Source of the DNA: a virus
IMG/VR virus record: IMGVR_UViG_3300036828_000389
Location: 1 to 64,000 of that record
Length of the DNA stretch: 64,000 nt
Strand: one strand, 5' to 3'
Shown here: positions 8,996 to 20,790 of the stretch, piece by piece
Numbering within the stretch: the first letter of the stretch is position 1
How the letters are laid out: each line of letters opens with the position of its first letter
The notes under the pieces: model-generated
Seen by the model: only the letters and a program-made list of their open reading frames with translations
Databases searched by the model: none
Told to the model about the DNA's origin: nothing
Made by a program: the position numbers and the translations under genes

Positions 8996-9043
8996 TCTGG
9001 AAATGACTTGCATGTCTACACCCATGGGGGTACTGTGATGGTG
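8996..9043 (+). promoter_or_regulatory. conserved promoter copy 6
   Basis: TCTGGAAATGAC-TTGCAT-N17-TACTGT-N7-ATG. Confidence 0.8.
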
Positions 9044-10516
9044 ATGACTTACACCGTGAACTTCGACAGCTGGCTTCCCGACAAGGTGAGCCTGTACGAC
9101 TACCAGACCGCAGGCGTGGCCTACGCCCTGTACGCCACCGCTGGTGGCAAGGGCGCCTGGATCGCGGATGAGCAGGGGCTGGGCAAGACCATGCAGGCCA
9201 TCGTGGCCGCCAAGGTGCGGGGCTGCAAGAAGATCGGCATCTTCGTCAAGGCCAGCCTGAAGGCTGTGTGGGTCCGTGAGCTTGAGCGCTGTGCCCCTGA
9301 GTGGAACGTCCAGGTGCTGACCGGCAAGCGGCCCTACGAGGCCACCGCTGAGGTCTGCATCATCCAGTTTGACCTGCTGCATACCTGGGCCGACGCCCTC
9401 GTTGCGGAGCAGTTCGATTGCCTCATCATCGATGAGAGCCACTACGTCAAGGACACCAAGGCGCAGCGGACGCGGGCCGCTCTCAAGGTGGCCGCGGATG
9501 TCCGCAGCCGCCGGGGCATGCTCCTGCTGCTCACCGGCACCCCGCTGCTCAATCGTCCAGTGGAACTGGTGCCCCAGCTGATGATGATGGGCCGCCTCCA
9601 GGACGTGTCCCCCCCGCCCCGCTACGGCACCTCCGAGCGCGACTGGGAGTACGCCTTCAAGAACACCTACTGCTTCAGTGAGCAGAACAGCTACGGGACC
9701 AAGTACAACGGGGCCCGCTGGACCGACCTGCTGAACACCCGCATGCGGAACAGCTGCTTCGTCCGCCGTCTGCGCCGCGACGTGCTGGACATGGCTGACG
9801 CTCACCGCGTCGCCACCCCGCTGAGCCTCAACGGCGCCCTGGACCGCTACTGGGATCTGGAGAAGCACTTCGTGTCCAAGAAGCCGGAGAGCTACTGGCT
9901 GGAGCTTCTGGGCGCCCTCCGCAAGGAGGTGGGCCGGGCCAAGGTGGCCGGTGCGGTCGACTGGGTCAAGGACTTCCTGGAGGAGACCGAAGAGGATGGC
10001 AAGAAGGTGGTGGTCTGGACGTGGCATGTCGCCGTAGGTGACAGCATCGCCAAGGCTTTCCCGGGCTGCGCCAACATGCGGGAGTTCCGCTCCGGCAGCC
10101 CTGAGTTCATGGCTGAGATGGACCGGTTCAACACCGACCCTGAGTGCCGGGTGATCGTCTGCTCGCTCAATGCTCACCGCGAGGGCCTGACCCTCGTCGG
10201 CAACGGTCACAACGTCACCGACACGCTGTTCTGTGAGCAGCCCTGGCACCCTGGTGCTGTGTCCCAGGCAGAGGATCGGATCAGCCGCATCGGCCAGCTG
10301 GCCCAGGAGCGCTTCACCACCACGCTGCAAGTCCCCGGCACCGTGGATGAGTGGCTGGCCAACCTCATCGCTGAGAAGTGGGAGACCTTCAAGGGCGCCA
10401 TCGATGGCACCGTGGTCGAGGCCCAGTCCGACAACATGCAGGCCATCGTGGCTGCCCAGCTGAGGGACTCTGTGCTGGCCAAGGTGGGCCCCAACCCCGA
10501 GATCGGCCGAGTGTGA
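9044..10516 (+). CDS. SNF2-family (SMARCAL1/HARP-type) helicase/ATPase
   Basis: Q motif LYDYQ, ADEQGLGKT, IIDESH, LTGTPLLNRP, QAEDRISRIGQ. Confidence 0.92.
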   Translation: MTYTVNFDSWLPDKVSLYDYQTAGVAYALYATAGGKGAWIADEQGLGKTMQAIVAAKVRGCKKIGIFVKASLKAVWVRELERCAPEWNVQVLTGKRPYEATAEVCIIQFDLLHTWADALVAEQFDCLIIDESHYVKDTKAQRTRAALKVAADVRSRRGMLLLLTGTPLLNRPVELVPQLMMMGRLQDVSPPPRYGTSERDWEYAFKNTYCFSEQNSYGTKYNGARWTDLLNTRMRNSCFVRRLRRDVLDMADAHRVATPLSLNGALDRYWDLEKHFVSKKPESYWLELLGALRKEVGRAKVAGAVDWVKDFLEETEEDGKKVVVWTWHVAVGDSIAKAFPGCANMREFRSGSPEFMAEMDRFNTDPECRVIVCSLNAHREGLTLVGNGHNVTDTLFCEQPWHPGAVSQAEDRISRIGQLAQERFTTTLQVPGTVDEWLANLIAEKWETFKGAIDGTVVEAQSDNMQAIVAAQLRDSVLAKVGPNPEIGRV

Positions 10517-11941: not shown

Positions 11942-12892
11942 ATGACATCGATACCGGCTCCCAACGCCGACGCCATGGCCGCCCTGCCCAATGCTGACTG
12001 GATCGTGGTCAACACCAGTGCTGGCAAGGACTCGTCCGTGACCCTGGACTACACCCTGGAACTGGCCGACAGCCTGGGCATCGACCACAGCCACATCGTG
12101 GCCGTCCACTGTGACCTGGGCCGGGTGGAGTGGGAGGGCACGCCGGAGTTGGCCGAGCGCCAGGTGGACCGCTACGCCGACATCCGCTTCTTCAAGGTGG
12201 CTCGCGACGGCACGGTCCGCAAGGATGGCAAGGTGCTGGGTGACCTGGTCGACCAGGTCTGGGAGCGCCATGAGGCCAACCAGGAGAAGGCCAAGACCGA
12301 CCCCCGCTACGCCAACCGCTCGCCCTGGCCCACGACCGCCAACCGCTGGTGTACCAGTGACCAGAAGGAGAGCCAGGTCACCAAGCTGATCACCCAGCTG
12401 GTGGACGACATCCTGGTGGGTGGCACCCGGAAGGACCGCAAGGACGCCTGGGTCCGCGAGGCCGACGGCACCTACACCCAACGCCCCATCCGCATCATCA
12501 ACGTGATGGGCATGCGGGCTGAGGAGTCCGAGAAGAGGAGCCAGATGCCCGAGTGGAGCCTGGACGAGTCCGCCAGCAACGGCAAGCGCACCATCTGGAA
12601 CTGGCTGGCCATCAAGGACTGGTCTGAGGAGCAGGTCTGGGACCGCATCCATGCCCAGGGCATTGAGTACCACTGGGCCTACGACAAGGGCATGGAGCGG
12701 CTCAGCTGCTGCTTCTGCGTCCTGGCCAGCCCCAAGAACTGGGCCATCGCCCTCCCTCACAACCGCCAGCTGGCTGAGTCCTACGCCGAGATGGAGCGCC
12801 GCACCGGCCATGCCATGGTGGAGCGGGCCAACGGCACCAAGGTCAGCATCCAGGACATCATCGACGCCGCTGATCGAGCAGCTGCCGCCTGA
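11942..12892 (+). CDS. PAPS-reductase-family PP-loop protein (DndC/SspD-like superfamily)
   Basis: PP-loop SAGKDS, RWCTxxxK, GMRAEESxxR, IKDWSEEQVW, RLSCCFC. Confidence 0.88.
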   Translation: MTSIPAPNADAMAALPNADWIVVNTSAGKDSSVTLDYTLELADSLGIDHSHIVAVHCDLGRVEWEGTPELAERQVDRYADIRFFKVARDGTVRKDGKVLGDLVDQVWERHEANQEKAKTDPRYANRSPWPTTANRWCTSDQKESQVTKLITQLVDDILVGGTRKDRKDAWVREADGTYTQRPIRIINVMGMRAEESEKRSQMPEWSLDESASNGKRTIWNWLAIKDWSEEQVWDRIHAQGIEYHWAYDKGMERLSCCFCVLASPKNWAIALPHNRQLAESYAEMERRTGHAMVERANGTKVSIQDIIDAADRAAAA

Positions 12893-14926: not shown

Positions 14927-15121
14927 ATGGCGAGGTATCGGGTCCAACAGAACCGCTCGGGCTGGCTGGTGCTGGACGGCAACACCCCGGTCAACTTCTT
15001 CTCAGCTGTAGATCCGGATCAGGGTCACGCCTCTGCCACCAGGTGGAACGTGGCCTACCAGCGGGCCCAGGACGAGGTCGACTGGCTGAATGCCCAGGAG
15101 GCGCCAGCCCGTGATCGGTGA
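14927..15121 (+). CDS. small hypothetical protein (leaderless)
   Basis: TAGGAT-N7-ATG. Confidence 0.7.
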   Translation: MARYRVQQNRSGWLVLDGNTPVNFFSAVDPDQGHASATRWNVAYQRAQDEVDWLNAQEAPARDR

Positions 15122-16079
15122 GAGCCTGCGGCCCCGGGATGTAGCGTATCTCCGCGGTCAACTACGGGACTGGTGGGCCATCCCGGGCGAGTTACAGTAC
15201 AAGCTGGCCATGCACGGGCGCCGGGACATGCCCGGCTGGAAGATGTCCGGCGACGAGACCGAACAGACCCGCCAGCACTACGCCTACGCCCTGGCCAAGG
15301 CCGATCTGTACTGGATATCGCCCGACATGAGTGACATGGTGGCCACTCTGGCTCCTTCTATACCGGATTGCATGCCCTACCCGCCCTGCCCCTGCGGCTT
15401 CGCCCTGTTCGCTCGCTCCATCCCCGGCATCGACGCCGTGGACGGCAACCAGATCTACACCACCGGCTTCCTGTGGGCCCAGATCAACCTGGCCAACCTG
15501 GGTGACTGCCTGGCCGTCACCACCTACAGCTGGCGGGGCCTGGTGAAAGCCTTCGACCAGCTGAAGAAGGAGAACCGGCGCCGGGAGGCGGAACTGGATC
15601 GCAAGCTGTCGGAGGTCATGCCCACCCAGCTGTTCCCGACCGGGGGCTGGGAGTGGCCGGAGGGGCACATGATGGAGGACTTCTCCAGCCTGCCCCCCAG
15701 TAGCGCCATCATGGAGGCGTCGATCCTGGAGGATCGCCGGATCCTGTCAACCTTCTGGACCCTCTGCTCGCAGAAAATCACCGTCGAAACAAGAGCCCAG
15801 CCCTCCAGGAATGAAATACGGGCAGCCACCCGGAAACGGCTCCCCGTACCAGTCGATGAGGTCCGCGTCATCAACCTGCGAGAGGTCGAGACGCGGCATC
15901 CAGGTCAGAATGGGCGGGATATCGATTGGCAGTATCGCTGGATCGTGTCGTCGCATTGGCGGAACCAGTATTACCCTTCCCGGGGCGAGCATATGCCCAA
16001 ACTGATCGACGCTTACCAGAAGGGGCCGCCGGATCGCCCCCTCAAGGTCCGCGACACCGTGAAAGCGCTGGTGCGCTGA
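15111..16079 (+). CDS. conserved phage hypothetical protein
   Basis: C-terminal VxxHWRNQYY...KxIDAYQKGP motif; GGAGG SD before GTG 15111. Confidence 0.85.
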   Translation: MIGESLRPRDVAYLRGQLRDWWAIPGELQYKLAMHGRRDMPGWKMSGDETEQTRQHYAYALAKADLYWISPDMSDMVATLAPSIPDCMPYPPCPCGFALFARSIPGIDAVDGNQIYTTGFLWAQINLANLGDCLAVTTYSWRGLVKAFDQLKKENRRREAELDRKLSEVMPTQLFPTGGWEWPEGHMMEDFSSLPPSSAIMEASILEDRRILSTFWTLCSQKITVETRAQPSRNEIRAATRKRLPVPVDEVRVINLREVETRHPGQNGRDIDWQYRWIVSSHWRNQYYPSRGEHMPKLIDAYQKGPPDRPLKVRDTVKALVR

Positions 16080-16109
16080 TCATGATCGATCCAAAAGAAA
16101 GGAAGCACC

Positions 16110-16793
16110 ATGACCACCACCCCTGAACCATCCGTTAACGACCTGAGTCCGATCTCCAAGGCGGGCCCAGCCAACCTGGAACCGGCCTTCCTGATCGACA
16201 CCAGCGGCTCCATGAGCTATCCCACCACCGCTGATGGCAAGGTGGAGCGCCGGGAACTGGTCGGAGAGGCCATCCCCTTGATCGTGGCCGGGCTGGAGGG
16301 CTTCGACGCCCAGGCGGCCAAGGAGACTGAGGCTGCGGGCGAGGAGGAGGGCGGCGTGATGACCGTCACCTTCGCGTCGGAGGCCGTGGTGGTGGGCGAC
16401 ATCAACTCCGGCAACGTCCGCGACCAGTGGAAGGCCATCCGCTGGGGCGGGGGCACCAACATCGTGCCCGGCTACCAGCTGGTCTTGTCCAACTATATGG
16501 AGGAGTTTGGCGACGAAGACCCGACCTCGCGGCCCGCTCTGCTGTGCATGGTCATCACCGACGGCGAGGCCGCCGACGAGGCCGAGTTTGAGCAGCTGCT
16601 GGAGAAGTCCAAGGGCGGCACCTACGTGGCCGTAGCGGTGGTGGGCTACGGTCCGGAGCATGATGCTGCCTTCAGTCAGTACCAGCGCATCGCCGGTAAC
16701 AACAACCACGTCCGGGCCCTGTCCTTCGCGGACGCCACCGACCCCAACAGCCTGGCTACCTCTCTGCTGGCCATGTTCGGCGGCACCCCCTGA
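16110..16793 (+). CDS. von Willebrand factor A (VWA) domain protein
   Basis: MIDAS DTSGSM, GGT, VITDGE; AAGGAAG SD. Confidence 0.9.
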   Translation: MTTTPEPSVNDLSPISKAGPANLEPAFLIDTSGSMSYPTTADGKVERRELVGEAIPLIVAGLEGFDAQAAKETEAAGEEEGGVMTVTFASEAVVVGDINSGNVRDQWKAIRWGGGTNIVPGYQLVLSNYMEEFGDEDPTSRPALLCMVITDGEAADEAEFEQLLEKSKGGTYVAVAVVGYGPEHDAAFSQYQRIAGNNNHVRALSFADATDPNSLATSLLAMFGGTP

Positions 16794-16796
16794 CGT

Positions 16797-17153
16797 ATGA
16801 GTGAGCCTCCCCATCGTTGGTGGTACTGCGTCAGCTGCTTTGCCATCAACGATGGCCTGGAGGAGGCCCGGTGCTGGAACTGCCAGACCGCTTTCCCTAG
16901 TCGCCACAAGCACAAGCCCTGGTGCGAGATGGGCCGCCAGCGCTGCGACGTGTGCCGTAAGTACTACGTGACCTGGACGCTTCCGGCCGGGACCACCTTG
17001 ACCATCCCTGACGTGTTGGGATTCTGCCCCTTCTATTTTGAGCATTACGGCGACGACGCCTATTTCCCACCCATGCTCCCAGCCATCTACGTCCTAGAGG
17101 CCAATGGTTACAGCTACAACGAGAAGCGAAAGAAGCTGGAGAAGATCAGGTGA
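16797..17153 (+). CDS. Cys-rich Zn-binding protein
   Basis: CVSC, CWNC, CDVC. Confidence 0.7.
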   Translation: MSEPPHRWWYCVSCFAINDGLEEARCWNCQTAFPSRHKHKPWCEMGRQRCDVCRKYYVTWTLPAGTTLTIPDVLGFCPFYFEHYGDDAYFPPMLPAIYVLEANGYSYNEKRKKLEKIR

Positions 17154-17353
17154 GCGACCTGCCGCTTGAAGGAGATAACGAGGTGGTGGTCACGGGCGCT
17201 TTGTTGATGCTCGTCGGCGCACGCTTCAAGACCGAACCTGTAACTACGGAGGAGAGACAGGCCACCAATGAGCTTTACGTTTGGCCTGAATTTATGAAGT
17301 CCCGTTACCGCATCACAGTCACACTTGATCCCGAAGGAAAGGAAGAGCAATGA
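17150..17353 (+). CDS. small hypothetical protein
   Basis: GTGA/ATGA overlaps. Confidence 0.65.
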   Translation: MSDLPLEGDNEVVVTGALLMLVGARFKTEPVTTEERQATNELYVWPEFMKSRYRITVTLDPEGKEEQ

Positions 17354-17619
17354 CAACACTGGTGCAAGAGGCCAACCGTATCGAGGACAGCGAGGTTGGC
17401 GTGCTGGTCATCCTGGACCGCAGCGGCGACACCCGGCACACCTGGGACCGGCGCAACGAGGACGAGGTGCAGGTCATCCGCGACCTGTTCGGCCGCATGA
17501 TCGACAAGGGCTACCAGGCGTGGTCGGTGACCCGTAAGGGCGACAAGGATCAGCGCATCACTGAGTTCGACCCCCAGGCTGAGAAGGTGATCTTCGCCCC
17601 AGCGCTGGTGGGTGGTTGA
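17350..17619 (+). CDS. 89-aa protein ending in C-terminal Gly-Gly (candidate ubiquitin-like modifier)
   Basis: ...FDPQAEKVIFAPALVGG-stop; coupled to the next gene by TGATG. Confidence 0.75.
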   Translation: MTTLVQEANRIEDSEVGVLVILDRSGDTRHTWDRRNEDEVQVIRDLFGRMIDKGYQAWSVTRKGDKDQRITEFDPQAEKVIFAPALVGG

Positions 17620-18233
17620 TGCCCCAGCAGCTGTACTACCAGCAGTACTGCAACACCACCGCGACCACGAACTACTACGTCCCCACCTGGGGGAGCAACA
17701 ACGCCACCATCACCTATCAGCAGGGCATTCCAACCAATCAGTACTACGCGCCCATCATCACCAGCACCAGCACTGATCAGATCTGGCAGCAGTGGGTGAT
17801 CATGGGGAACGGCACCATAACCACCAGCGGTACGCCCACCACCTTCTGGCAGGAGACTGCGGAGCAGATGGAGGCTCATCGCGAGCAGCGGGAGCGGGAG
17901 CGGGAGGAGCGGGTGGCCGCTCGGACCCGGGCCCGGGTGCTGCTGGAGGACTTCCTCAACGACGAGCAGAAGGTGGAGTTGGAGCGCCATAGTCGCTTCC
18001 ACGTCACCGGGTCGCGGGGACGGCGCTACTGCATCCGCACCACCGGCCAGGCTGGCAACGTCGACCTGCTCAAGGACGATGGACAAGTCCAGGCTCAGCT
18101 GTGTTGCCATCCCCGGGGCTACCTGCCCGATGGGGACGCCTGGTTGATGCAGATGATCGAGCTACGTCACGACGAGGATCACTTCCTGGCCACGGCCAAC
18201 GTCCACCGGGGGGCGCTCCCCGCAGCCGCATGA
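17619..18233 (+). CDS. partner of the Gly-Gly protein; C-terminal domain with Cys/His/Asp motif
   Basis: T/Q/Y-rich N-terminus, charged helix, then GxxYxI...GNV...LCCHP...LPDGD...Q...DExxFLxxAN. Confidence 0.75.
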   Translation: MPQQLYYQQYCNTTATTNYYVPTWGSNNATITYQQGIPTNQYYAPIITSTSTDQIWQQWVIMGNGTITTSGTPTTFWQETAEQMEAHREQREREREERVAARTRARVLLEDFLNDEQKVELERHSRFHVTGSRGRRYCIRTTGQAGNVDLLKDDGQVQAQLCCHPRGYLPDGDAWLMQMIELRHDEDHFLATANVHRGALPAAA

Positions 18234-18472
18234 GCGATGAACTCGACCCTGGCTTCATCGCCATTGAGCAGCAGGTAGATCTCGGTGGCCAGGTGCTGAG
18301 CCTGACCGGCAAGGTGAACCTGATCGGCCTGTCCGCGGCCCAGCGTGAGGTGCTGCTCGACATCCTGGACGCCTTCGCTCGCCTGGGCTCCAAGACCCGC
18401 ACGCGAGAGAGGGTGCGAGCCACGCGGGCCCGTACTGCCGTTCCTCAGGAGGAAGAGGAGGGAGGGGAGTGA
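18230..18472 (+). CDS. hypothetical protein
   Basis: Start at MSDELD, ATGA overlap. Confidence 0.7.
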   Translation: MSDELDPGFIAIEQQVDLGGQVLSLTGKVNLIGLSAAQREVLLDILDAFARLGSKTRTRERVRATRARTAVPQEEEEGGE

Positions 18473-18609
18473 CTTGCGGTCACCGCTGGCCGCTCCTCGA
18501 CCCCAACGAGGATGACCGGGTCAATGGCGTCACCCATAAGTGCAGTCGTGAGCCTGGACATGGTGATGATCATCTGTGCGTCTGTGGGGCCCGGCCGGGG
18601 GACGACTGA
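18469..18609 (+). CDS. 46-aa Cys/His protein (not in ORF track)
   Basis: MTCGHRW...HKCSREPGHGDDHLCVCG; strong SD, GTGA and TGATG overlaps. Confidence 0.65.
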   Translation: MTCGHRWPLLDPNEDDRVNGVTHKCSREPGHGDDHLCVCGARPGDD

Positions 18610-18803
18610 TGCCCCCCCACTTCGACAACCCCACCAACGCCCTGGCCGAAGATATCGCCATCTGGCTTGCTGACGGGCACGGGGACGTGGAGGATTACAT
18701 CCAGGATGCCTACGACCTCATCAGAACCCTGCGGGCCCGGGGGTGGCAGTTCTCTGTCGCTCTCGGGCGCGCTGACTCCACCGGACGAGTCCCGCTGCGG
18801 TGA
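18609..18803 (+). CDS. small hypothetical protein
   Basis: Start at MPPHFD, TGATG overlap. Confidence 0.65.
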   Translation: MPPHFDNPTNALAEDIAIWLADGHGDVEDYIQDAYDLIRTLRARGWQFSVALGRADSTGRVPLR

Positions 18804-19039
18804 AGAACTGCGCTGGTCCCTGGCGTTGGTATTGCCGGTGGTGTGGGGCGAAAGAGCAATATGACGATCCCGCTGAACGGGATCGTTCTGCGTATGAACA
18901 CGTTGTCTTGATTCACCCTGGCCCTGACTATGTGGTCAGATCAGCCTCATTTGGGCACCTTCTGCATGTGTGGCCCATCCCTTCAAGTCTTTCTGACGGC
19001 ACAGAGCGTGCCTACCCTGGCGTCGATGCCCCTGAGTAA
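18800..19039 (+). CDS. small Zn-finger-like protein
   Basis: WYCRWCG...HVVLIH. Confidence 0.6.
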   Translation: MKNCAGPWRWYCRWCGAKEQYDDPAERDRSAYEHVVLIHPGPDYVVRSASFGHLLHVWPIPSSLSDGTERAYPGVDAPE

Positions 19040-19496
19040 CCTGCCCGGTCCCTGGCGTTGGGAGAAGCGCAACGGGTTCTGGTGGCGGATTCACGATGAA
19101 CTGAGGATCGAGGACGGGCCCCATGAGTGGAACGAACTCAACATCGGCCTGGGTGGCTACGGGGAGGGCAGCCGTTGGCTCGACCGGGACGGCGAACCTA
19201 TTCCAGTCATAGTGGCGAGCGACCTCCTGGCTGACCCGGACTACAAGGTCATCGCCAAGGACGTGTTCATCTACGACGACACCCCCATGGAGGTCTCCAC
19301 CGTCTGGCTCGGGCTGGATCACAACTGGTGGCCTGATCGCTCTCCTCAGATCTTTGAGACCATGATCTTCGCCCCTGGCACTGACTGGGATCTCAACCTG
19401 TGGCGCTACAGCACCGAAGCTGAGGCTCGCGAAGGACATACTGAGGTGTTGGCTATGGTAAAAGACGCGGAGCAGCACCGAAGGAGGAACTTGTGA
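19026..19496 (+). CDS. conserved phage hypothetical protein
   Basis: VSTVWLGLDH...IFETMIF...RYSTEAEAREGH motif. Confidence 0.8.
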   Translation: MPLSNLPGPWRWEKRNGFWWRIHDELRIEDGPHEWNELNIGLGGYGEGSRWLDRDGEPIPVIVASDLLADPDYKVIAKDVFIYDDTPMEVSTVWLGLDHNWWPDRSPQIFETMIFAPGTDWDLNLWRYSTEAEAREGHTEVLAMVKDAEQHRRRNL

Positions 19497-19529
19497 GTCA
19501 GTATTCGGACATGACCGGGGAGGGCTGAC

Positions 19530-19796
19530 ATGGCCAAGGTGGATGCGGTCAGCTGCGATACGTGCCAGCGGGTCGAGCGTCCCGCAGAGGGGGCCCAGCT
19601 GCCCCTGGAGTGGTATCAGGCCACGGTCTTCCAGCAGGGCTCCGGCGAGGTGCTGAGCGACAGCACCTTCTGCTCCTGGGACTGTGTGAACCTGGCCATG
19701 AAGCAGGAGCCGGAGGTCAAGGTCCGCCGGAAGCGTCGGACCCGGGAGCAGATGGAGGCGGACGCGGCGGCAGCTGCTGCGACCGCCAGTGCCTAG
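19530..19796 (+). CDS. Zn-binding protein
   Basis: CDTC...FCSWDC; GGGAGG SD. Confidence 0.75.
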   Translation: MAKVDAVSCDTCQRVERPAEGAQLPLEWYQATVFQQGSGEVLSDSTFCSWDCVNLAMKQEPEVKVRRKRRTREQMEADAAAAAATASA

Positions 19797-20112
19797 TGAC
19801 CCCTGGCAGGATGCCAGTGCTAAAGCCTGGGTTCGCAACGTCCTCAAGAACATGCTGCCCAAGCTGGAGGGTTCCTCCTGCACCATCTCCCTGGTGCCAC
19901 AGGACAGGGAGGGTGATGTCAAGTTCTGGGTGGAGCTAGGGGCCTCGATCATGCTCGACAAGCCCTTGATCGCCGTCCTGTTGGGCGACGCCCCCTGTCC
20001 CCGCAAGCTGGCCCTGGTCGCGGATGAGATCGTCAGGTGCCCGGATGGCATCGATCCGGCCAGTAGCGAGGAATTGGCTGCGGCCCTCAGGCGAGTGTTG
20101 GGTGATGAGTGA
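19789..20112 (+). CDS. nucleoside 2-deoxyribosyltransferase/TIR-like small protein
   Basis: DVKFWVELGASIMLDKPLIAV resembles the ExGxAxxxxKP signature. Confidence 0.6.
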   Translation: MPSDPWQDASAKAWVRNVLKNMLPKLEGSSCTISLVPQDREGDVKFWVELGASIMLDKPLIAVLLGDAPCPRKLALVADEIVRCPDGIDPASSEELAAALRRVLGDE

Positions 20113-20278
20113 CACCCCGGAGAACCTGGAGGCATTCCCCCCGGTCCCCGAACTGGGGGGCGCCATCGGCCGGACAGCGTCTGACGCCTGTCGTCAGGGC
20201 CAGCATGATCTGTGCAAGGACGACACATGCATGTGTCGTCACCATGAGCGCTTGTGGTACGACCAGGTACTGAGGTGA
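20105..20278 (+). CDS. small Cys/His protein
   Basis: ACRQGQHDLC...CMCRHH. Confidence 0.6.
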   Translation: MSDTPENLEAFPPVPELGGAIGRTASDACRQGQHDLCKDDTCMCRHHERLWYDQVLR

Positions 20279-20790
20279 ACCACCAGGACACCTTTGATGA
20301 CCTGTGCATCCTGCTGGAGCAGCACCTGGGTCGCGGCATCGATGACGTGGCCACCGAGATCATGGCCTTCCTGGACATCACCAGCGAGGTGATCCTCTCG
20401 GAGCGGGATCCGCCGCCGGGCCTACGCCGCTGGCTGGCCTCTCACGGACTTGTCCTGGTGGCCGCCGCCGAACCCACGCCCACCCACGTCATGGATCTGA
20501 TCGATGAGGACGACGACGTGGTCGAGGCTGAGGTGTCCACCCAGGAGAGGGCGGGGGGGAGTAGCCCTCTCCTGGGCGTGGGGGACTACGTACAGTACCG
20601 CACCGCTCCGATGGGTCCGAACAACATGAGCCAGCTGGGCTCGGGCACCGTCGTCGGCGTCCACACCGAGAGCATCGAGGTGGAGTTCTCCCCGAACGGG
20701 GGCCGGATCGTGCTGTTCCTTGAAGCCGACACCATCCAGGTGATCCGGTCTAGCCGCGACGAAGACGCCGGGTCGGAGCAGCTGCTGTAG
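20275..20790 (+). CDS. hypothetical protein with C-terminal SH3/KOW-like segment
   Basis: LGVGDYV...GTVVGV...IEVEF; GTGA overlap. Confidence 0.65.
   Translation: MNHQDTFDDLCILLEQHLGRGIDDVATEIMAFLDITSEVILSERDPPPGLRRWLASHGLVLVAAAEPTPTHVMDLIDEDDDVVEAEVSTQERAGGSSPLLGVGDYVQYRTAPMGPNNMSQLGSGTVVGVHTESIEVEFSPNGGRIVLFLEADTIQVIRSSRDEDAGSEQLL

Follow-up and report, generated by a model that had tools for sequence, protein, structure and literature searches.

The window analysed here is a 64,000-nt stretch of virus DNA (positions 1 to 64,000 of IMG/VR record IMGVR_UViG_3300036828_000389). It carries two overlapping genes, called A and B below, whose features are collected in Table 1; the stretch was present in two soil-metagenome DNA runs, with no RNA run listed. 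An earlier note on this DNA had described an 89-aa protein ending in Gly-Gly whose TGA overlaps the next ATG, and both features were recovered in the sequence: A terminates in ...KVIFAPALVGG and is followed by TGA at 17617-17619. B might also begin at an in-frame TTG (17616), though this is less likely. Related loci carry TGATG, TAATG or GTGA overlaps, or near-abutting A and B genes. Co-translation of A and B from overlapping genes is strongly supported.

Table 1. Positions of the features of the A-B locus in the window.
Feature	Positions	Strand	Description
Ribosome-binding site of gene A	17333..17347	+	Purine-rich GAAGGAAAGGAAGAG, AGGAAG-type; 2-16 nt 5' of the gene A ATG; read from the sequence
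Gene A	17350..17619	+	89 aa; ubiquitin-like beta-grasp, free Gly-Gly end
A tail codons, A85-L-V-G-G89	17602..17616	+	In the predicted complex, located on the Cys loop of B; residues 83-89 in the interface
TGATG stop/start overlap, A-B	17617..17621	+	1-nt overlap, translational coupling; B ATG at 17619
Gene B	17619..18233	+	204 aa; partner protein
B residues 1-75	17619..17843	+	Uncharged Thr/Ser/Gln/Asn/Tyr/Trp-rich low-confidence region; starts Met-Pro; [IV]WxxW motif is IWQQWV, residues 55-60
B residues 81-124	17859..17990	+	Long charged helix 81-112 and short helix 115-124, running into the globular domain; DSSP of the model
B residues 113-204	17955..18230	+	Conserved globular domain: helix, four strands, two helices, final strand; tentatively UBC/RWD superfold
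B Asn147 codon (GNV motif)	18057..18059	+	Invariant, 141/141 representatives
B C162-C163-H164-P165-R166 codons	18102..18116	+	Invariant Cys ending strand 4, then x-His-Pro
B P170...D173...Q178 codons	18126..18154	+	Invariant Pro-x-x-Asp and Gln; start of the helix packing on A

The model of A has the topology strand-strand-helix-strand-strand-strand, which is that of a ubiquitin-like beta-grasp, and every top match in a Foldseek search with this model was a ubiquitin-superfold domain; MoaD and TtuB were among the fold matches. Sequence searches with A gave no Pfam match at E ≤ 1, ThiS, MoaD and ubiquitin models included, and no NCBIfam match at E ≤ 10. The residues invariant in the A family alignment are G26, D27, W32, E39, F47, A57, G64, I70, F73, D74, P75, A77, E78, K79, G88 and G89; outside this alignment K79 and A77 are substituted in some loci, and distant members have R, Q or E in place of K79. 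The terminal Gly-Gly was present in 75/75 database homologues and in all 18 of the first 18 IMG/VR loci, where it is written with GGT, GGC, GGA and GGG codons in varied stop contexts. Rare distant forms end in AG (loci L047/48) or PG (Rctr197k) and still keep the last Gly. Differences between relatives of A concentrate at third codon positions of the + strand. The possibility that GGTGGT is a mere ribosome-binding site for B was ruled out, as homologues vary the GGN codon, use TGA, TAA or TAG as stop and sometimes have no overlapping start; because all four GGN codons occur and the downstream context varies, the constraint acts on the protein and not on a ribosome-binding site. Judged from these comparisons, the Gly-Gly end of A is more than a chance feature. 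The beta-grasp model and the terminal Gly kept in homologues bear out the earlier comparison of A with ubiquitin-like modifiers, and there is strong support for A being a ubiquitin-like (Ubl) beta-grasp protein whose Gly-Gly is exposed at the C-terminus from synthesis on.

All the segments of B quoted in the earlier note (GRRYCI, GQAGNV, LCCHP, LPDGD, DEDHFLATAN, the T/Q/Y-rich N-terminus and the charged helix) are present. The N-terminal region is modelled with a pLDDT below 50 at residues 1-39, 41-49 and 63-69; across 216 family members its composition is 15.5% T, 5.6% W and 0.5% K, and WxxW occurs in 183 of these 216 in one to four copies each. The profile of the C-terminal domain matched 10,523 clusters (at 50% identity), and 75 near homologues of B were found. 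Conservation was read from an alignment of 141 new representatives, taken from the best 150 of more than 10,000 matching clusters. N147, C162, D173 and Q178 were each kept in 141/141 representatives, P170 in 140/141, P165 in 132/141 and H164 in 131/141. Thus, of the Cys, His and Asp of the partner whose invariance the earlier note wanted tested, Cys and Asp hold and are joined by N147 and Q178, and His does not: several distant members (L015, L017, L018, L019 and one L049 paralogue) have Leu or Val there. In LCCHP it is the first Cys only (C162, codon TGT at 18102-18104) that never changes; the second, C163, varies between C, A, I and V. C138 (of RYCI) is kept among close relatives only. A zinc site made of C138, C162 and H164 was ruled out, C138 and C163 not being conserved beyond close relatives, because one invariant Cys alone remains in B. 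The B family has no invariant Lys; since K79 of A is also replaced in distant members, no conserved acceptor is visible. The loss of H164 in several distant members and the lack of a conserved acceptor Lys in A or B are both observations that weigh against conjugation. Combined, the three-part layout of B is strongly supported: an uncharged tail rich in Trp and Thr is followed by a long helix and then by a C-terminal domain with a conserved pocket (N147, C162-x-H164-P165, P170, D173, Q178). The conservation pattern of B looks enzyme-like at the level of sequence.

The globular domain of B was tentatively assigned from its model to the UBC/RWD (E2-like) fold. The RWD structures 2daw and 2yz0 are among its best fold matches, and this assignment rests on weak matches. 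RWD domains carry a YPxxxP motif after strand 4, where B has a Pro-x(3-4)-Pro loop. In classical E2s the Cys lies about ten residues after HPN; B has C-x-H-P and not HPN, with C162 ending strand 4, beside the A tail in the predicted complex, so placed relative to His-Pro that it is unlike classical E2s. This position of Cys162, two residues before His-Pro, also weighs against conjugation. Sequence searches with B gave no Pfam match at E ≤ 1, and no UBC-clan family was among the Pfam matches at E ≤ 10 for 19 B family members; a profile search against PDB sequences returned noise only. An hhalign comparison of the B profile with one Prok-E2_B (Cap2) domain gave a probability of 0.4%, the sole aligned segment pairing both Cys loops without being significant, and a Prok-E2_B search of 301 Planctomycetota genomes gave one match. 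No peptidase fold match was seen in the fold lists of B.

The linkage of the two genes was assessed over every locus with sequence. B was the next gene after A in all the loci reached from A (19/19), and A came immediately before B in all those reached through a B motif (7/7); the genes thus stay adjacent and usually overlap, which answers a question that the earlier note had raised. Natural in-frame A-B fusions occur in L051/L053, and A is fused to an unrelated tail in P0292; in each case the join falls exactly after the Gly-Gly. The pair recurs in unrelated uncultured phages. Four unrelated phage genomes with 49-63% GC were compared (three complete, of 82-235 kb, plus the 75.5-kb fragment, 64% complete, to which the window belongs), and A and B, one copy each, were the sole genes common to them (BLASTP, 1e-5). 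The pair sits among small accessory genes, outside the structural and replication modules. Among GenBank phages, tblastn with B gave no match and tblastn with A found only Virus Rctr197k and an uncultured 595-kb phage; when species-representative genomes were scanned with a single strict peptide pattern, one A-B locus came up, on a Planctomycetaceae MAG contig. Neither A nor B was matched in PHROGs, PADLOC, Pfam or NCBIfam, the PADLOC models including none that matches the B domain. These results are best explained if A-B is a two-gene module of tailed phages that is self-contained and moves horizontally.

No third gene of the module was common to the A-B loci. A VWA protein, a Cys-rich 118-aa protein, a 188-aa protein and a PAPS-reductase-like enzyme were considered as third component and set aside, being conserved among close relatives only. 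A ThiF-type E1 (PF00899) was found in 0/6 genomes, comprising the window's own and five relatives that are 97-100% complete, and a Prok-JAB peptidase (PF14464) in 0/5 genomes, four of them near-complete; the JAB search was made with the PF14464 model. The earlier remark that no ThiF/E1 or JAB gene is recognisable in the window therefore extends to near-complete relatives. With no ThiF-type E1 or JAB found, a free carboxylate without ATP would offer no energy for a bond, a further point against conjugation.

Structure prediction for A with B gave an ipSAE of 0.72, compared to 0.01 for the best control; the same ipSAE mark was reached by 58/80 solved complexes and 2/110 mismatched pairs. Across the runs the contact agreement was at least 91%, the pLDDT of the partners at least 79 and the number of contacts 80-96. 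Residues 83-89 of A contact residues 162-170 of B, the loop after C162, and helix residues 97-112 of B touch A; the lowest expected error was found at the B:A contact pairs 173:22 and 176-178:81-86. A role of WxxW as a Ubl-binding motif was ruled out, as it makes no contact with A in this complex. The earlier note had asked whether the tail of A reaches the LCCHP Cys, and the prediction does set it on the loop following that residue. A and B are thus predicted to form a tight heterodimer, with strand 5 and the ALVGG tail of A running along the loop after C162.

Such a large and confident interface would be just as much in keeping with a permanent non-covalent complex. The tail of A may fill the conserved pocket of B, with A serving as subunit, regulator or pseudo-substrate and with no conjugation, and the pocket may catalyse another reaction, for example as a Gly-specific peptidase or deconjugase directed against Ubl-based host defences, or none. 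An interface of 80-96 contacts is commoner in obligate complexes, translational coupling favours a 1:1 stoichiometry, and both the missing E1 and the missing conserved acceptor Lys fit a plain heterodimer. The rare in-frame fusions that run on after Gly-Gly would require a Gly-specific cleavage, and the lone E2 of E2-only CBASS has cysteine-protease activity (10.1101/2022.05.25.493364). However, an invariant terminal Gly with a free carboxylate is hard to explain by plain binding, since almost all A copies need no processing; an invariant Cys beside the A tail is left unexplained, and the peptidase version has no peptidase fold match of B to draw on. We consider a purely non-covalent pair unlikely.

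The reading that we favour, and to which we give slightly less than an even chance, is that A and B are a minimal E1-less UBL/E2-like pair, in which A is loaded on Cys162 of B and passed to target lysines. B would act as an E2-like carrier or ligase: with the help of His164 and Asp173, a thioester would form between Cys162 and the last Gly of A, and B would then transfer A to lysines on host or phage proteins. As phages with A-B encode no E1, A would have to be activated by something else, either a host E1-like adenylating enzyme of the MoeB/ThiF type or B itself; the latter route is reported for the lone E2 in E2-only CBASS. There, Cys101 and His87 capture a pocket-inserted C-terminal Gly without E1 (10.1101/2022.05.25.493364). 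Some bacterial E2-like proteins conserve a His that lies on the C-terminal side of their Cys (PMC1779556, table row 6d), and Bub operons contain Ubl-E2 fusions cleaved after Gly (PMC11601596). A more specific version, virus-borne Ubl conjugation free of an E1 of its own, in which B alone or with a hijacked host MoeB/ThiF-type enzyme loads the Gly of A on Cys162 and tags host or phage proteins picked out by the Trp/Thr-rich tail or a basic hairpin, is doubtful.

The gene order also recalls sulfur carriers of the ThiS/MoaD/TtuB kind. In that case a thiocarboxylate would form on the last Gly of A, and B would draw on its sulfur via Cys162, the product perhaps being a modified nucleotide or cofactor. 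In moaD-moaE the carrier gene precedes an adjacent, overlapping partner gene and the MoaD tail enters the partner; as in MoaD-MoaE/ThiS carriers, the gene of a GG-ended beta-grasp protein lies just upstream of that of its partner in A-B, and the tail is predicted to insert. The window also encodes a PAPS-reductase-type PP-loop enzyme (11942-12892; PF01507, E 3.2e-16). However, the three A-B phage genomes compared with the window's own lack a homologue of this PP-loop gene, and no E1-like, rhodanese or cysteine-desulfurase partner travels with A-B. No MoeB/ThiF-type gene lies beside A-B, and B matches no MoaE or sulfurtransferase family by sequence (Pfam at E ≤ 1; 19 members at E ≤ 10; PDB), with none in the fold lists. 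A sulfur-carrier role is highly improbable.

Prokaryotic Ubl tagging is known from bacterial defence operons, namely Bil, Bub (PMC11601596) and type II CBASS; these carry an E1 and a peptidase or protease, E2-only CBASS excepted as to E1. Among the systems closest to the favoured reading of A-B as a conjugating pair is E2-only (short type II) CBASS, which likewise has two components and neither E1 nor JAB (10.1101/2022.05.25.493364), and in which, as predicted for A-B, the Gly-ended tail of one partner enters a pocket in the other, a small protein of E2 type. The catalytic Cys of that system has an essential His close by, comparable to the candidate Cys162 and nearby His164 of B. The modified protein is a cGAS/CD-NTase nucleotidyltransferase in the former and a beta-grasp Ubl in A-B, and the former is a bacterial defence whereas A-B is a phage gene pair. 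Next to A-B lie genes for a VWA protein, a Cys-rich protein and small proteins of no assigned function, with no CD-NTase and effector as in E2-only CBASS. The CBASS E2 falls into known E2 families and carries an acceptor Lys, whereas B matches no family and differs in its Cys two residues before His-Pro and in its Trp/Thr-rich tail and long helix.

Type I operons of Bub (6E/DUF6527) encode the Ubl-E2 fusion BubAB, the peptidase-E1 BubCD and BubE (PMC11601596). They share with A-B the order of Ubl then E2, with the C-terminal Gly of the Ubl exactly at the junction, and BubAB is mirrored by the occasional in-frame A-B fusions. However, Bub depends on an E1 and on a JAB peptidase, and the genomes with A-B gave no PF00899 or PF14464 match and no DUF6527 protein was seen; Bub works via oxyesters (serine), whereas the candidate nucleophile in A-B is a Cys. 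Unlike in Bub, A is normally made mature and the carrier is a phage. Bil (BilABCD; class 6d, PMC1779556) also joins a small Ubl with a C-terminal Gly to an E2-like protein, and the E2-like proteins of class 6d are without the His of classical HPN but conserve one on the C-terminal side of the Cys, which resembles the C-x-H of B (PMC1779556). Bil is a host defence of four genes, including an E1 (BilD) and a JAB (BilC), with no detectable sequence relationship to A or B. Finally, the RWD and inactive E2-like domains of polyUbl operons (PMC1779556, row 6e) have, like B, a helix, four strands and two helices, and also associate with Ubl domains; they have no conserved Cys, in contrast to the invariant Cys and enzyme-like invariant polar set of B.

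Conjugation of Ubl proteins by the host is a known defence against phages (PMC11601596, PMC10097602), and A-B may instead be an anti-defence decoy. A would mimic the Ubl or the Gly-ended CD-NTase tail of host Bil, Bub or type II CBASS and B would mimic the E2, so that host E1/E2 would be soaked up or misdirected and phage proteins spared from tagging. The position of the module among small accessory genes and its movement between unrelated phages as an accessory cassette agree with this. The defences concerned are sporadic, however, and the B family is very large; A and B have no sequence similarity to Bil, Bub or Cap2 components, and a decoy would not obviously need an invariant Cys/Asp/Gln/Asn pocket of its own. 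A decoy function is quite improbable.

In conclusion, A-B may be an undescribed minimal protein-tagging module. No family library or paper that was found describes the pair, in agreement with the earlier note, and it differs from the known Ubl-tagging defence operons in being carried by phages, with no E1 and no peptidase found and with families absent from Pfam, NCBIfam, PHROGs and PADLOC. Both proteins are small and soluble and so are easy to test at the bench. If there is no conjugation, A-B would still be a very common, unexplained phage heterodimer with a predicted enzyme-like pocket. If E1-free tagging is true, it would be the smallest known Ubl-tagging machine and among the most widespread (more than 10,000 phage sequence clusters). 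Conjugation by A-B would show how little machinery Ubl tagging needs, would give phages a route to rewriting host or virion proteins, and would bear on the origin of E2 enzymes.

Genes A and B, encoding the 89-aa ubiquitin-like protein and its 204-aa partner, lie inside a plus-strand cluster of small accessory genes (15090-20790) and are surrounded by genes for a VWA-domain protein, a Cys-rich 118-aa protein and several unknowns. The GG-terminated product of A and the overlap of its TGA with the next ATG, as described in the earlier note, are read directly in the sequence, and all the motifs quoted there for B were found; a purine-rich ribosome-binding site is present upstream of A. The source viral contig (75.5 kb, 63% GC, 64% complete according to CheckV) belongs to a tailed phage with genes for a baseplate wedge protein, a terminase large subunit, a portal and a capsid protein, together with a DNA polymerase, helicases, a primase and a UvsX-like recombinase. 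The stretch is present in two soil-metagenome runs and no close known phage was found at the DNA level. One close A homologue is carried by a 1.8-kb contig binned to Ktedonobacteraceae, which is weak evidence on the host. Among the neighbours, the VWA protein is missing from distant A-B loci, and in the related loci L004 and L005 its homologue lies directly downstream of B and not upstream of A. The 118-aa protein probably binds zinc and has no family match. For the PP-loop enzyme, comparison with three further A-B phage genomes gave no homologue. The DNA at 19789-20112 weakly matches a gene of Mycobacterium phage JustASigh annotated as nucleoside deoxyribosyltransferase.

Features of the A-B region and of the accessory genes (L001, a related viral locus)
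Feature	Position	Strand	Details
SNF2-family ATPase	9008-10516		PF00176, E 8.3e-17; left accessory region
Stand-alone PAPS-reductase-family PP-loop enzyme	11942-12892		PF01507, E 3.2e-16
VWA-domain protein	16110-16793		PF00092, E 5.5e-7
Cys-rich 118-aa protein	16797-17153		CxxC pairs; L001 copy 77% identical
A	17350-17619	+	89 aa, C-terminus ...KVIFAPALVGG then TGA
B	17619-18233	+	204 aa; first ATG base is the A of gene A's TGA
Trp/Thr-rich N-terminal region of B	17619-17843
107-aa protein	19789-20112		94% identity to L001 homologue; best-conserved gene of the neighbourhood

The 75 homologues of A in the protein database (identity 54-100%, length 66-97 aa) all end in GG, as do all 18 IMG/VR loci that widen the family down to 37% identity. 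The invariance of this GG, on which the earlier note had made its proposal depend, stands in both sets but not in distant members, where the terminal Gly is retained and the preceding residue varies (AG in two loci, L047/48; PG in Virus Rctr197k). In the 18 loci the GG is written with GGT, GGC, GGA and GGG codons and followed by TGA, TAA or TAG, indicating that the constraint acts on the peptide; the same variation rules out that GG is merely a ribosome-binding site for B. A co-translated pair in which A has a ubiquitin-like fold and an exposed terminal Gly is strongly supported.

Protein B can be divided into three parts. Residues 1 to ~75 are modelled with low confidence, uncharged and rich in Thr, Ser, Gln, Asn, Tyr and Trp; among 216 family members this region contains 0.5% Lys and, in 183, one to four copies of an [IV]WxxW motif, and at least 96 of these 216 sequences start with Met-Pro. 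Residues 81-112 form a long charged helix, and residues 113-204 a globular domain (model pLDDT about 84-97) built of a helix, four strands, two helices and a final strand. The profile of this domain matches 10,523 clusters (50% identity) at E<=1e-3 and 6,348 at E<=1e-10. N147, C162, D173 and Q178 are invariant in 141/141 aligned representatives, and P170 (140), N194 (138), E186 (133), P165 (132) and H164 (131) are nearly so. In the LCCHP motif singled out by the earlier note, the first Cys (C162) is invariant but C163 is variable; C138 (RYCI) is retained in close relatives only. A pocket of enzyme-like character centred on a single invariant Cys is strongly supported, and from the alignment its invariant polar residues look like an active site. 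A second conserved surface, the strongly basic hairpin G(K/R)RYRIRRG (residues 134-143), makes no contact with A in the predicted complex. In two distant phages (L009:6415-7527 and L014:6284-7474), the Trp-rich region of B is preceded by an extra N-terminal segment (~150 residues) whose Cys pairs, C...SHC / CARC, may form a zinc ribbon.

The two genes stay adjacent, as the earlier note had wished to see established. B is directly downstream of A in 19/19 loci with downstream DNA, and an independent search with the B motif DTMLAQK found an A-family gene directly upstream in 7/7 loci with upstream DNA. In the loci found from A, the junction usually overlaps or abuts within a few bases, a few loci having a short insert or small ORF, and adjacency persists where A is only 37-49% identical as well as in a Planctomycetaceae MAG contig, the single match among 185,579 species-representative genomes. 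No third conserved gene was found near the pair in distant loci. When the window's 75.5-kb fragment was compared with three complete genomes of 82, 190 and 235 kb (49-63% GC for the set), A was the sole ORF cluster found in 4/4 genomes and B the sole cluster found in three (BLASTP 1e-5), B being recognised in the fourth by HMM search and alignment; each genome has one copy of each. Combined, adjacency without other conserved neighbours and the sole common clusters indicate that the pair is an autonomous cassette transferred between unrelated phages. A MoaD/ThiS-like sulfur relay would be possible from the fold of A alone, but no conserved partner gene supports it and we regard it as very improbable.

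In some jumbo phages a single A is accompanied by two or three paralogues of B (L049:1260-4513, on a 436-kb phage contig; L057, KX853510.1 Virus Rctr197k, genes _113, _112 and _110). Among these paralogues, one is extended at the C-terminus and is missing the Trp-rich tail; in another, the N-terminus is Cys-rich and there is no His-Pro. The A/B copies of Rctr197k are located near a CRISPR array and transposase-like genes.

The complex of A with B(50-204), each with its own alignment, was predicted with an ipSAE of 0.72 compared to 0.01 for the best control, a value reached by 58/80 solved complexes and 2/110 mismatched pairs; as our own alignments were supplied for A and B, these counts apply only approximately. 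Contacts agree by at least 91% between model runs, with partner pLDDT of at least 79. The interface involves the strand 1-2 turn (22-27) and strand 5 plus tail (81, 83-89) of A, and residues 162-170, 173, 176-185, 189-194 and helix 97-112 of B. The pairs of lowest expected error (B:A) include 163:86-87, 164:86-87 and 165:84-87, which traces a predicted path of the A tail along the loop following C162. This prediction, the one called for by the earlier note, favours binding in such an arrangement. In this confident model, the tail is predicted to sit at the B pocket. The very large predicted interface would also suit a permanent non-covalent heterodimer, in which the pocket does something else or B is a Gly-specific peptidase or deconjugase; we consider this the less likely situation, though a serious one.

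No Pfam, NCBIfam, PADLOC or PHROG model and no PDB sequence matches B, and Foldseek against the PDB was blank. Exhaustive VIA-align over 48,161 chains returned mostly matches of single helices to the long charged helix of B, and few rows extended over the globular domain. The Mad1 C-terminal domain, in which an RWD domain follows a coiled coil, also appeared weakly. These matches are mutually consistent, each being weak. Alignment of the B profile with a single Cap2 E2 domain (hhalign) was not significant. Directly after strand 4, B has the motif C-x-H-P-x(3-n)-P-x-x-D; at this place E2s have HPN and RWD domains YPxxxP. Some bacterial E2-like proteins are described by Iyer et al. as missing the classical His, a conserved His being located C-terminally of the Cys instead (PMC1779556, table row 6d). 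From the fold matches, a UBC/RWD-like domain is the best available assignment, a tentative but probable one.

B would act in an E2-like manner, the terminal Gly of A being loaded onto Cys162 and then passed on. The main difficulty is the absent E1. The earlier note had recognised neither ThiF/E1 nor JAB, which holds in the window's genome: no ThiF-type adenylation domain was found there or in five relatives 97-100% complete, control genomes being positive, and no Prok-JAB domain in the genomes searched. Firstly, A might be activated by a host MoeB/ThiF-type enzyme; these are near-universal in bacteria and act on GG-ended beta-grasp proteins. Secondly, B might be self-sufficient, for which there is a reported precedent. 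In E2-only CBASS, a lone E2 captures the C-terminal Gly of cGAS via Cys101 and His87, the cGAS tail being inserted in the E2 pocket; as a cysteine protease, this E2 also removes the residue that follows the Gly (10.1101/2022.05.25.493364).

Type I Bub makes its ubiquitin-like protein and E2 as one protein, cut exactly after Gly (PMC11601596). Natural in-frame continuations after GG are rare in the A family, with two cases. A and B share one reading frame in L051:2440-2500 and in L053; these loci, on two jumbo-phage contigs from IMG/VR (435 kb and 231 kb), differ by a single base over 6.3 kb. Their junction is CAG GGG GGT TTA ATG compared to GGT TAA TG in relatives, the extra T abolishing the stop. 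This could be a real BubAB-like fusion, a homopolymer error or a frameshift site. In P0292, an A-family protein (181 aa, ENA contig of 1422 bp), ...AAAMQGG is followed immediately and in frame by an unrelated extension of about 100 residues beginning with Met, an arrangement resembling eukaryotic ubiquitin-fusion precursors. Homopolymer sequencing error could explain such continuations; if they are real, something cleaves after GG.

Among described systems, those nearest to the pair are E2-only CBASS, Bub, Bil, RWD-like inactive E2 domains and MoaD-MoaE. Lacking an E1, a JAB and a CD-NTase, the A-B pair falls outside Bil, Bub and CBASS. No sequence model of ubiquitin-like or E2 families matches A or B, the Rctr197k copies are annotated in GenBank as hypothetical proteins, and no description of a phage ubiquitin-like protein paired with a lone Cys partner was found in the literature searched. 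An anti-defence decoy against host ubiquitin-like systems is a reading of function compatible with either chemistry, and an unlikely primary role. We group the pair with prokaryotic ubiquitin-like modules; E1-free conjugation, if demonstrated, would make it much more than a further one.
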